DNA of 64,000 nucleotides from Anaeromyxobacteraceae bacterium. Its GTDB lineage: Bacteria > Myxococcota > Myxococcia > Myxococcales > Anaeromyxobacteraceae. The position numbers and the translations under genes are program-made. Below, in pieces: positions 32,797 to 37,798 of this stretch. The notes below the pieces were generated by a model. It saw only the letters and a program-made list of their open reading frames with translations, ran no database searches and was not told the origin of the DNA. The stretch is taken from assembly GCA_047602405.1 (NCBI GenBank), contig JASGHJ010000002.1:672001-736000 (forward strand), written 5' to 3'. The first letter of the stretch is position 1, and each line of letters starts with the position of its first letter.

Positions 32797-33756
32797 CGTC
32801 GGGGCTCCCGGCGCTCGGCCTGCCGGTCGAGGAGGGCGCGCGCCTCCTCGCGCTCGCCCGGGTGGCCGCCGTCGACGCCGCCTCCGCGCGCCTCTCCGGC
32901 GACGCCGACCCGGAGGCGCTCCACGACTTCCGGGTGGAGCTGCGCCGGCTGCGCTCGCTCCTGCGCGCCTTCCGTCCGTGGCTGCGGGCCGGGCCGCGGC
33001 GCCGCCACCTGCGGGCGCTCCGGCGCCTCGCCGCCGGGACGGGCGCGTCGCGCGACGCGGAGGTGCAGCTCGCCGTGCTCGCCGGCGAGCGGGCCCGGAT
33101 CCCGCCCGACCGCCGGGCCGGGCTCGACTGGCTCGTCGCGCGGCTCGAGGCCGCGGCCGAGGCCGGCGCCGGCGACACGGCGCGGGCCGTGCGCCGCTGG
33201 CGGAAGCTCTCGCGCCGGCTCCGGCGGCGGCTCTCGACCTACGAGCGGAGGCTCCGCCCGCTCGAGCTCGAGTCCTTCGGCGGCGTCCTCGCCGCGCTCG
33301 TCGAGGGCCAGCTCGAGGCGTTCCTCGCGGCGCTCGCCGCGGTGGAGGGGGCGGGGGACGTCGCCCGCGCCCACCGCGCGCGCCTCGAGGCGAAGCGGCT
33401 GCGTTACCTCGTCGAGCCGCTCCGGGACGCGCCGGGGCTCGGGGCCCGGACGGCGGTGGAGCGGCTGCAGGGCGTGCAGGACGCCCTCGGGGAGCTCCAC
33501 GACGCGCACGTGCTCGAGGCCGCCGTCGAGGCGGCGCGGCGCGGCGCGGCGCGCGCCGGGGAGGGCAGGGCGCCGGCCCTGTCCCCGGTGACGCGGGTGG
33601 TGCGCGCCCGGCGCGACCGGGCCTACGGCGCGCTCCTGCGCTCGGGGGACGCCCTCGAGGCGCTCTCGGGCGAGCTGAAGCGGCTCGCTCGCGCGGCCGC
33701 CTCGCCGGGATCGACCCTCTGGATCGCGCGCCCCGCGGACGGTATACGAGGGCGCG

Positions 33757-33773
<17 letters not shown>
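32793..33773 (+). CDS. CHAD-domain (polyphosphate-binding) protein
   Basis: DPEALHDFRVELRRLRS, RDAEV, HRARLEAKRLRY, QDALGELHD. Confidence 0.9.
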
Positions 33774-34643
<870 letters not shown>

Positions 34644-34647
<4 letters not shown>

Positions 34648-35726
34648 GCCCGGCCGCGCCGTCCTCGTGGCGCATGCCGGCGGAGTGGCTCCGCCACGAC
34701 GCGACCTGGCTCGCCTGGCCGCACAACGTCGCCGACTGGCCCGGGCGCTTCGCGCCAATCCCGTGGGTCTACGCGGAGATCGTCCGCAACGTCGCCGCGG
34801 GCGAGCGGGTGCACCTCCTCGTCGACGGGCCCGCGGGCGAGAAGAAGGCGCGGAGCGTGCTCGCCCGCGCCGAGGTGCCGCTCGAGCGCGTCACCTTCCA
34901 TCGCCAGCGCACCGATCGCATCTGGACCCGCGACACGGGGCCGATCTTCGTGACCGGGGACGGCGCCTCCGGCCAGAAGCGCAAGGCGGTCGCCCGCTTC
35001 CGCTTCAACGCCTGGGCGAAGTACCCGAACTGGAAGAACGACGCGAAGAACCCCGAGCGCGCCGCGAAGGCGCTCAAGGTGCCGCTGTTGCCCGTGGAGC
35101 ACGGCGGGCGCGAGGTGGTGCTCGAGGGCGGCGCCATCGACGTGAACGGGCGCGGGACGATCCTCACCACCGAGGAGTGCCTGCTCGACCCCGCGGTGCA
35201 GGTCCGCAACCCGGGCTTCGCGCGCGAGGACTACGAGGCGGTCTTCGCCGCGGCGCTCGGCGCGCCGAACACCCTCTGGCTGGGCAAGGGCATCGCCGGC
35301 GACGACACCCACGGGCACGTCGACGACCTCGCCCGCTTCGTGAACCCGCGCACGATCGTGATCGCGAGCGAGCCGGACGGCCGGGACCCGAACCACCGGC
35401 CGCTCGCCGAGAACCTGGAGCGCCTGCAGGGCGCGCGCCTCGAGGACGGGAGCCGGCCCGAGGTGGTCGAGCTGCCGATGCCGCGGGCGATCGTCTTCGA
35501 CGGCCAGCGCCTGCCGGCGAGCTACGCCAACTTCTACGTCTGCAACGCCGCGACGCTCGTGCCCACGTTCGACGACCCGCGGGACCGCGTGGCGCTCGGT
35601 ATCCTCGCGGAGCTCCTGCCGGATCGCCCGGTGGTGGGCATCCACGCGCTCGACCTCGTCTGGGGCCTGGGGACGCTCCACTGCCTGTCCCAGCAGGAGC
35701 CTGCGGCCGGCGACGGGGCCCGTTAG
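34644..35726 (+). CDS. aguA: Agmatine deiminase
   Basis: RMPAEW, WTRDTGP, LEGGAID, DDTHGHVD, ASYANF, LHCLSQQEP. Start is TTG 34644 or ATG 34674. Confidence 0.92.
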
Positions 35727-35735
35727 CAACAGGGC

Positions 35736-36212
35736 ATGCTCAAGCCCGGCGACGCCGCCCCCCCCTTCAGCGCCACGGATCACCTCGGCAACCCGGTGTC
35801 CCTGGCGGACCTGCACGGCAAGACGGTCGTGCTCTGGTTCTACCCCAAGGCCGACACCCCGGGTTGAACGCGTGAGGGTTGCGGGTTCCGCGACCTCAAG
35901 GCGGAGTTCGACCGCAGGAACGCCGTGATCTACGGCGTGAGCTTCGACACCCCGGAGGAGAACCGCGCGTTCGCGGAGAAGTTCTCCTTCAACTTCCCGC
36001 TCCTCTGCGACGAGGACCGCGCGATGGGCCTCGCCTACGGCGCGGCCGACTCCTCGAACGCGGGGAGCGCGAGGCGGGTGGGCGTCGTCATCGGCCCGGA
36101 CGGGCGGATCGTCGAGTGGCTGCCGAAGGTGGACGCCTCGGCCTATCCGCACGAGGTGCTCGCGCGGCTCCCGGCCGCGAACGCGCTGGACGATCGGCGG
36201 CCGCCGGGGTAG
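35736..36212 (+). CDS. bcp: Selenocysteine-containing peroxiredoxin (BCP/PrxQ); UGA at 35865-35867 decoded as Sec
   Basis: MLKPGDAAPPFSATDHLGNPVSLADLHGKTVVLWFYPKADTPG-TGA-TREGCGFRD...GVSFD...FPLLCD. TGA is codon 44, exactly at the peroxidatic Cys position. Confidence 0.92.
35873..35898 (+). promoter_or_regulatory. Bacterial SECIS element (hairpin 3' of UGA)
   Basis: TGAG-G-GTTGCGG-GTT-CCGCGAC-CTCA forms a stem with a G-starting apical loop about 17 nt after UGA. Confidence 0.8.
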
Positions 36213-36221
36213 CTCCCTGGC

Positions 36222-37094
36222 ATGACCGGCGCCTCGAAGCGGCTCGCGTTCCTCGGCATGGGCCTCCTCGGCTCGAACTTCGTCCGCGCGCTGCGCGGGC
36301 GAGGCGAGGAGGTCCGGGTCTGGAACCGGTCGCCCGGGAAGGCGCGGGCGGTGGCGGCCGAGACCGGCGCCACCGCCTTCGACGACCCCGCCGAGGCGGT
36401 GCGCGGCGCCGCCCGCGTCCACCTCGCCTTGACCGACGACGCCGCCGTCGACGCGACGCTCGAGGCGGTGCGGGCGGGCCTCGCCCCGAACGTCGCGATC
36501 GTGGACCACACCACGACCTCGCGCGAGGGCGCCATCGCCCGCACCGCGCGCTGCACCGCGCTCGGCTTCGCGTTCCAGCACGCGCCGGTCTTCATGGGCC
36601 CGGGCAACGCGCGCGAGGCGACCGGCATCATGCTGGCGTCCGGCTCCCGGGCGCTCTTCGACCGGCTCGAGCCCGAGCTCGCGAGGATGACCGGGAAGCT
36701 CGTCCACGTCGGCGACGCCCCCGGCCTCGCCGCCGCGTACAAGCTCCTCGGCAACCAGTTCCTCGTCGCGATGACCGCCGGGCTCGCCGACACCTTCGCG
36801 CTCGCGAAGGGGATGGGGCTCTCGACCGCGGACGTGGAGGGGCTGTTCGGCTTCTTCAACCCCGCCTCGTCGCTCGGGCCGCGCATGAAGCGGCTCCTCG
36901 CCGCCGACTACGGCAACCCGAGCTGGGGCCTCGCGATGGCGAGGAAGGACACCCGCCTCATGATCGAGGCCGCGCGCGCCGGCGGGGTGGAGCTCGCGGT
37001 GATGAACGCCATCGCCGCCGAGATGGACCGCTGGATCGCGAAGGGCCACGCCGCCGACGACTGGACGGTCATCGCGAAGGATGCGGTGAGGTAG
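36222..37094 (+). CDS. NAD(P)-dependent beta-hydroxyacid dehydrogenase family oxidoreductase
   Basis: AFLGMGLLG, VWNRS, APVFMGP, YKLLGN, MARKD. Confidence 0.88.
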   Translation: MTGASKRLAFLGMGLLGSNFVRALRGRGEEVRVWNRSPGKARAVAAETGATAFDDPAEAVRGAARVHLALTDDAAVDATLEAVRAGLAPNVAIVDHTTTSREGAIARTARCTALGFAFQHAPVFMGPGNAREATGIMLASGSRALFDRLEPELARMTGKLVHVGDAPGLAAAYKLLGNQFLVAMTAGLADTFALAKGMGLSTADVEGLFGFFNPASSLGPRMKRLLAADYGNPSWGLAMARKDTRLMIEAARAGGVELAVMNAIAAEMDRWIAKGHAADDWTVIAKDAVR

Positions 37095-37210
37095 GGGAGG
37101 CGACGGAGGTGCCGCGCGAAGGTCGGGTCGCGTCTCGGAGCCTTTCTCCGGAGAAGGTCGTGGGGCGACCGGGTTTCAGTGGCAGGTTCTCGCTCCCCGG
37201 CGGCGAGAAG

Positions 37211-37291
37211 TGCTATCAAATGTGATAATCCGCTCCCGGCTGGGCAGGGACGCCCCGGACGGGGCAGGCCGATGCTATCAAATGTGATAGC
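37211..37291. promoter_or_regulatory. Two identical 17-bp palindromic operators upstream of the XRE gene
   Basis: TGCTATCAAATGTGATA at 37211 and 37273; the second extends to a perfect GCTATCA-N4-TGATAGC. Confidence 0.75.
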
Positions 37292-37303
37292 GTTTCCCCG
37301 CGC

Positions 37304-37798
37304 GTGAGAAGGACCCCGAAGACCCCGCCTCCCGACGAGTTCTGGCGCGACCGGCGCGGGCTCGACCTCGTCCACGCGGCGCTGCGCCCGGGCGGCAAGG
37401 TGCTGGAGGTCCGGTTCCGGTGGGGGCAGCGGTACGAGGTCGAGATCGAGAACCTCGGCTTCGACAGGCCCCCGCTGCTCGCCACCGTGGGCGACGACCC
37501 GCGCGTCGTGGTGCTGGGCCTGCGGGACGGGTCCATGACCGACGTCCCCGCGACCGCCATCCTCGCGCTCGCCGAGCCCGCCTTCACCGCGAAGGTGACG
37601 GCGAAGGCGGACACCGTCGGCGCCAAGGTCCGTGCGCTGCGGCTCGCCGCGGGGCGGACGGCCTCGGAGGTCGCGGCAGCGTCAGGGATGGCGCGCTCGA
37701 ACTACGCCCGCCTCGAGATGGGCCGCTACGAGCCCCGCCTCGCCACGCTCCGCCGCGTGGCGGAGGCGCTCGGTCAGCCGCTCGAGGCGCTGCTCTGA
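37304..37798 (+). CDS. Protein with unrecognised N-terminal domain and C-terminal XRE HTH
   Basis: VGAKVRALRLAAGRTASEVAAASGMARSNYARLEMGRYEPRLATLRRVAEALG. Confidence 0.85.
   Translation: MRRTPKTPPPDEFWRDRRGLDLVHAALRPGGKVLEVRFRWGQRYEVEIENLGFDRPPLLATVGDDPRVVVLGLRDGSMTDVPATAILALAEPAFTAKVTAKADTVGAKVRALRLAAGRTASEVAAASGMARSNYARLEMGRYEPRLATLRRVAEALGQPLEALL

Follow-up and report, generated by a model that had tools for sequence, protein, structure and literature searches.

Selenocysteine (Sec) occupies the peroxidatic site in PrxU of Eubacterium acidaminophilum, which we take to be a Sec-peroxiredoxin shown by experiment. The COG of Bcp is COG1225. Peroxiredoxins count among the established selenoprotein families of bacteria (PMC13188914); a Sec-peroxiredoxin family of 43 genes with the motif TxxU, assigned to PF00578 and COG1225, was listed in 2005 (PMC1088965), and a list of 12 Sec-peroxiredoxins, several of them plainly BCP-like and three from Anaeromyxobacter dehalogenans, appeared in 2006 (PMC1794560). 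The statement in the preliminary description of this locus that Sec-peroxiredoxins are known in bacteria is thus correct and extends to the BCP type; since BCP-type members have been predicted since 2005-2006, the gene described here reveals no new kind of system. In the literature searched, which leaves most subscription journals outside its coverage, no study of a Sec-PrxQ enzyme was found. The sulfur-based counterparts are the 2-Cys PrxQ/BCP enzymes of the CxxxxC type, with the consensus PKxxTPGCTxEAC (PMC8945050).

The window, a 64,000-nucleotide stretch of DNA from an Anaeromyxobacteraceae bacterium, contains a BCP/PrxQ-type gene whose frame runs from the ATG at 35736 to the TAG ending at 36212 with a single internal stop, a TGA within FYPKADTPG*TREGC (Table 1). 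The preliminary description had placed this TGA at the peroxidatic position of an otherwise intact BCP and had noted that the list of open reading frames reports only the C-terminal 95 residues, from a GTG start. All of this was borne out when the frame was read: in the alignment to solved BCP/PrxQ structures codon 44 falls on the peroxidatic Cys, each half separately matches AhpC-TSA PF00578 (E 5.9e-10 and 3.2e-10), and the third-position GC content is 0.95-0.98 on either side of the TGA. The read-through protein scores 116 bits against PF00578, and the match takes in positions 1-122 of the 124 in the model. Its segment PKADTPG-U satisfies the PrxQ motif P(K/A/R)(D/A)xTxGC (PMC5302317), with U replacing C and a Gly before the peroxidatic residue. 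The G(V/I)SxD motif of PrxQ/BCP is present as GVSFD at residues 67-71, and the conserved arginine of the active site has an established catalytic role in peroxiredoxins. In assembled contigs of a relative with ~93% identity (runs X2, X3 and X5; another genome), positions 35865-35867 are unchanged among the matches listed. No match to a sigma-70 promoter or a terminator was found within 33500-37400, and a plasmid search gave nothing beyond two short 73% matches.

Table 1. Coordinates of the features in the window.
Feature	Position	Strand	Evidence
Gene for a BCP/PrxQ peroxiredoxin (158 codons and TAG, with one TGA read through)	35736..36212	+	PF00578, structures, AlphaFold2, family
Active-site motif PKADTPGU (Pro37, Thr41, Sec44)	35844..35867	+	Fits PrxQ motif; Thr41 invariant in 85/85
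In-frame TGA (codon 44): predicted peroxidatic Sec, where helix 44-60 starts	35865..35867	+	
SECIS-type upper stem-loop, 8 bp stem, encodes Gly48-Cys49-Gly50-Phe51-Arg52-Asp53	35877..35895	+	Fold, covariation
Cys49 (TGC), candidate resolving Cys, Sec +5	35880..35882	+	Cys in 52/62 TGA genes and 23/23 Cys genes
GUU loop, 17 nt after UGA	35885-35887	+	
95-aa ORF from GTG, standard-caller output	35925..36212	+	Fragment without active site
Cys91 in FPLLCD, strand 89-91	36006..36008	+	Kept in 54/62 TGA genes and 21/23 Cys genes
Arg114, conserved active-site arginine	36075..36077	+	Invariant in 85/85; Arg in aligned 2ywn

An AlphaFold2 model was built with Cys substituted for Sec from a 110-sequence alignment (pLDDT 90.1). 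BCP/PrxQ proteins came first both in a sequence search of solved structures and in a fold search with this Cys-substituted model, where the top 12 matches were all of BCP/PrxQ type and the best of them reached TM values of about 0.8-0.85. Residues 146-158 form a low-confidence tail that is missing in most relatives. With the solved 2-Cys PrxQ/BCP members (2ywn, 3drn, 3hjp, 5epf, 5enu) the protein shares the fold, PKADTPG, GVSxD, the arginine and the Cys at +5; it differs in the Sec at the peroxidatic site, in GCG rather than ACx around the resolving Cys and in an additional Cys91, and the structural identity is only 31-35%. Cys91 (LLCD) corresponds to Ser in the solved BCPs aligned, and 75 of the 85 family members retain it. 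The scores for the named NCBIfam equivalogs lie below the cut-offs for NF006960 bcp (97.7 vs 140) and NF053650 PrxQ (100.1 vs 260). PrxU (NF040737) shares the Sec at the peroxidatic site but is a different subfamily, with a score of 31.4 bits (cut-off 270) and a model of 233 positions compared with 158 aa here.

The TxxU family of 2005 has in common with the studied gene the Sec in place of the peroxidatic Cys in PxxxTxxU, the Pfam domain and an in-frame UGA followed by a SECIS in coding sequence; its 43 Sargasso genes were compared through the published tables (PMC1088965). The BCP-type entries of the 2006 list, from A. dehalogenans, Geobacter metallireducens, Syntrophobacter and Syntrophus, begin helix 2 with the same FYPK..T.GU, but unlike the studied gene none of those in the list has a Cys five residues after the Sec (PMC1794560). 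We assign the studied gene to a clade separate from them.

The genome (6.16 Mb, 98% complete, 74% GC) encodes the machinery for Sec insertion, which the preliminary description had named as a point to check. A selA gene was found (E 3.5e-123), selB is present in one copy over the cut-off, and selD, also over the cut-off, carries an in-frame TGA of its own. The tRNA-Sec (selC) scores 76.7 bits (cut-off 47) and is the sole tRNA with a TCA anticodon among 65.

Downstream of the TGA lies the hairpin GGTTGCGGGTTCCGCGACC, with a stem of 8-9 bp and a GUU loop. In the bacterial SECIS (bSECIS) model a loop of 3-9 nt with a G in the first two places tops a stem of 4-16 bp, at 16-37 nt from the UGA and with a minimum free energy (MFE) of at most -7.5 (PMC13188914). 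The hairpin falls within all four constraints (GUU, 8-9 bp, 17 nt, -21.1 kcal/mol). The generic rule was rejected as proof, as 43% of random TGAs from the same 74% GC genome (1304 of 3000) satisfy it; hence, the case for the hairpin depends on comparative evidence, and conservation and covariation carry the weight. The segment 35868-35910 folds with a stability z of -2.7, and 4 of 200 shuffles were equally stable. The exact geometry, a GUU 17 nt after the TGA with at least 7 perfect pairs, occurs at 1 of 89,127 TGAs, a count for a pattern that was itself derived from the site and the family. An Rfam scan of 35600-36400 with E up to 10 returned seven chance-level matches and no SECIS family.

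The close resemblance to the core of the E. coli fdhF SECIS claimed in the preliminary description stands, with some differences. The quoted core is correct, and both elements have a GGUUGC 5' arm, a GGU at the apex and a stem closing on ACC. The arm starts 9 nt after the UGA here compared with 11 in E. coli fdhF, the bulged base of the E. coli upper stem is absent, and the loop of the MFE fold is a GUU triloop rather than GGUC. Compared with the E. coli element and with the three formate-dehydrogenase-type (FDH-type) genes of this genome, the loop is about 2 nt nearer to the UGA.

For the comparison, a search of genome contigs yielded at least 500 related stretches, of which the best 80 (58-92% identity) were used together with the studied gene and four loci of orthologue level (L010-L013) from the search within the genus; L009, a near-copy of L040, was left out. 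The resulting 85 loci contain no identical coding sequences, and two of them (L064 and L068) share one genome. The alignment with Cys orthologues that had been proposed for this gene shows TGA at codon 44 in 62 of these 85 loci, TGC in 21, TGT in 2 and TAA or TAG in none. Eight phylum labels are represented among the TGA forms, chiefly Acidobacteriota (20), Myxococcota (19) and Rokubacteria/Methylomirabilota (15). The named locus nearest to the studied gene, L040, is 92% identical and has the TGA followed by 45 identical bases; by this locus the genome is Anaeromyxobacter-like. The absence of differences to L040 from -3 to +47 of the TGA was not used as evidence, as a longer difference-free stretch (+53 to +139) adjoins it. 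Within the genus, an orthologue was found in 1 of 24 other genomes drawn, while the best matches in the remaining 23 (E 1e-16 to 1e-32, about 36-44% identity) are far below orthologue level.

At 17 nt from codon 44, the MFE fold shows a GUU loop in 61 of the 62 TGA genes and in none of the 23 Cys genes; a looser rule finds the loop in 3 of the 23. Over 46 distinct TGA rows the eight-pair stem is 96.5% paired, with eight cells changed on both sides; none of 500 shuffles paired as highly, and controls slid along the sequence gave 37-54%. In the Cys genes (21 distinct rows) pairing is 69%, without any two-sided change. Six of the eight two-sided changes combine TGC to TCC at the resolving-Cys codon with CGC to CGG, in six genes of one clade of related Acidobacteriota (five without L100, whose genome is marked as unpublished), so that few independent events underlie them. 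In the studied gene the corresponding pair is G35881, the middle base of the Cys49 codon, with C35891, the wobble base of Arg52. The stretch from Gly48 to Asp53 is doubly coded, as part of the active-site helix and as SECIS, which accounts for a rare codon at Gly48 and a near-fixed Gly50: Gly48 is GGT in 60 of 62 TGA genes but in 2 of 23 Cys genes, although GGT makes up 2.5% of Gly codons in the genome and about 11% elsewhere in the family genes, and Gly50 is present in 61 of 62 TGA genes compared with 7 of 23 Cys genes, where residue 50 is mostly Ser.

Generally, the Sec machinery, the distribution of 62 TGA and 23 Cys codons and the covarying stem that tracks the TGA support the proposal that Sec is the peroxidatic residue, and we are highly confident that this is a real selenoprotein gene with Sec predicted at codon 44. 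The hairpin just downstream, SelB and tRNA-Sec very likely act together in decoding the TGA as Sec.

Sec and Cys forms alternate within the family. A quick tree without the active-site columns gives nine Sec/Cys changes (134 columns; unrooted, with 12 of 82 branches well supported). Independent Sec/Cys pairs number four when well-supported branches are used and nine on all branches, and the hairpin never goes the wrong way; a sign test on them gives a median p of 0.125-0.25, the pairs being too few to reach significance. The loops found under the loose rule in 3 of 23 Cys genes were rejected as vestigial SECIS elements that would prove a Sec-to-Cys direction, the tree being unrooted. A match to selA was obtained in 46 of 50 TGA-form genomes tested (45 strong, one weak; the sample covers 50 of the 59 TGA loci among L040-L119), and the four blanks are metagenome bins. 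Since selA was likewise found in every one of the 23 genomes with a Cys form, loss of this gene does not account for those forms, and its presence is useless for separating the two. The genome of locus L060 has selA in two pieces in different frames (G079:C169:12762-13837; model positions 1-203 and 203-366), which is a frameshift or an assembly error; its peroxiredoxin has the TGA and an intact SECIS. Locus L013 (G037) is a divergent TGA member with zero cysteines (UTVQGK) and another hairpin, with a 7-nt loop at 21 nt.

In the proposed mechanism, SelB bound to the GUU loop would deliver Sec-tRNA, and Sec would be inserted at codon 44. Held by Thr41 and Arg114, Sec44 would attack ROOH and form a selenenic acid; helix 2, which in the AlphaFold2 model includes Cys49 (helix 44-60), would then unfold locally and allow Cys49 to react with the selenenic acid, giving a Se-S bond within the molecule. 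This bond would be recycled by thioredoxin and thioredoxin reductase, for which three genes and one gene, respectively, score over the cut-off in the genome, and peroxides would be reduced by selenium in place of sulfur. The catalytic steps are modelled on those of 2-Cys PrxQ enzymes (PMC8945050). Given Sec, resolution of the Sec44 selenenic acid by Cys49 to a Se-S bond is probable. The preliminary description had held that UxxxxC implies a selenenylsulfide cycle; the Cys at +5 is indeed there, but the motif alone is no proof, as 10 of 62 TGA members are without this Cys, which is hence not essential in the family.

The main alternative, rather unlikely in our estimate, concerns this cycle and not the Sec reading: the protein would be a selenoprotein whose selenenic acid is either reduced by thioredoxin or a small thiol without a resolving residue (a 1-Sec mode) or resolved by Cys91, and Cys49 would be retained partly through the place of its codon in the SECIS stem. 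The losses of Cys49 in the TGA genes, which correspond to about five changes on the tree, compare with none in 23 Cys genes, although the difference has a Fisher p of 0.056 with kinship ignored. Cys91 is retained in 9 of the 10 TGA genes without Cys49; however, it lies on strand 89-91 and is equally conserved in the Cys forms. The lack of a +5 Cys in all 12 Sec-peroxiredoxins of the 2006 supplement (PMC1794560) and the description of 1-Cys BCPs for which Trx or GSH/Grx is the direct reductant (PMC8945050) also speak for this alternative. On the other hand, TCC is tolerated in the stem with a compensating CGG, so that pairing does not force a Cys, yet Cys49 is kept in 52 of 62 TGA genes. Resolution by Cys49 stays our preferred reading of the cycle.

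Decoding of the UGA as another residue, either Cys through a non-canonical tRNA or selenium shortage or Trp under a changed code, would give an ordinary or inactive BCP. UGA-to-Cys systems exist in some bacteria, Cys is functional at codon 44 in the 23 relatives with Cys codons, and Trp stands at this position in seven of 120 full-length database matches, records that are best read as gene calls under another code table. TGA, however, is used as a stop more often than any other codon, ending 1119 of 1908 long coding-like ORFs, which rules out a changed code, the only tRNA with a TCA anticodon scores as tRNA-Sec, and there is one selB; we consider this decoding very improbable. Least credible of all is a true stop, whether the gene is a pseudogene with a nonsense mutation, is split in two or was assembled wrongly. 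A single base change makes a TGA of TGC, and two other BCP paralogues in the genome could cover a loss, but the same TGA recurs at 61 further loci, with eight phylum labels among them, and is never TAA or TAG, coding bias is kept in both halves while neither fragment has a whole active site, the 92%-identical L040 has both the TGA and the same following 45 bases, and the stem pairing of TGA genes with its compensatory changes contradicts it.

In databases, the 43-residue piece before the TGA has been deposited as a protein for loci L048, L050, L060 and L040; named records of this length include NMO15949.1 (Pyxidicoccus fallax), MBZ4419430.1 (Myxococcus sp.) and AKJ07223.1 (Archangium gephyra; L048 cluster). 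Together with the seven Trp records, these stubs agree with the claim that such genes are routinely mis-annotated. None of the 120 full-length matches has U at this position; the look-up was blind to U records, so that correct RefSeq entries may exist.

Two further BCP genes were noted in the genome. One is a second Sec-BCP paralogue (UTQEAC; G000:C1:1570007-1570453, L038) with a SECIS of another type, a 7-bp stem and a 6-nt loop starting with CG at 21 nt from the UGA, compared with the GUU loop at 17 nt of the studied gene. Paralogues of this type are frequent in the genus; their +5 residue is Cys or Ser, some have TGC in place of the TGA, and by eye the one here closely resembles entry 1 of A. 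dehalogenans in the 2006 list (PMC1794560). The other, a Cys-form BCP (G000:C2:852869-853303, L039), looks by eye like entry 2 of A. dehalogenans, which has Sec (PMC1794560); the two represent an apparent further Sec/Cys switch within the genus. Other candidate selenoproteins are an AhpC-TSA-like redox protein with an in-frame TGA in RHFG*MFCRE (UxxC; G000:C2:2215535) and a thioredoxin-like domain with one in WAPW*PTC, in a long frame after a signal-like N-terminus (G000:C1:1785035). In three molybdopterin oxidoreductases the formate-dehydrogenase motif contains a TGA, and these genes have hairpins of the fdh type (G000:C2:524560-525987, 776747-777688 and 3601466-3601876).

The gene stands in a same-strand run at 33757-37094 of the window, after an aguB-like amidase and an aguA-like deiminase and before a 3-hydroxyisobutyrate-dehydrogenase-like gene, with a gap of 9 nt to each neighbour. 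A functional link to these neighbours was rejected for the family as a whole: the same company occurs at 1 of 84 other loci (L040; flanks of 1.5-4 kb or less), so that it says nothing on function. Clustering of the flanking ORFs gave no family-wide neighbour and one block common to about 20 myxococcal loci (L045-L109). There, the Sec forms of Archangium, Myxococcus sp. and Pyxidicoccus have the same neighbours as the Cys forms of Corallococcus and Hyalangium; by eye these resemble a membrane transporter and a pair of ECF sigma and anti-sigma factors.

The gene adds a SECIS with covariation support across a family; of mild interest is the resolving-Cys codon inside the SECIS stem. The annotation is also corrected, as three named orthologues in cultured myxobacteria are on record as 43-aa stubs. 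A wider interpretation, which we put forward tentatively as a possibility, is that the gene belongs to a large uncatalogued Sec-PrxQ clade of Myxococcota, Acidobacteriota and Rokubacteria/Methylomirabilota. In this clade the SECIS would lie over the resolving-Cys helix, with RNA and catalysis constraining each other, the resolving Cys would be dropped only in the Sec form and with a compensating base, and Sec and Cys would have been swapped repeatedly with selA kept, also among cultured aerobic myxobacteria, where the locus has the same neighbours in Archangium and Pyxidicoccus (Sec) as in Corallococcus (Cys). The practical value lies in close natural Sec/Cys pairs, and in Sec forms that either have or lack the resolving Cys, in strains that can be cultured; such series exist in culturable myxobacteria and in Acidobacteriota. 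If the interpretation is true, the family would offer a natural matched series on what selenium buys a peroxiredoxin and on why it is given up while still available.
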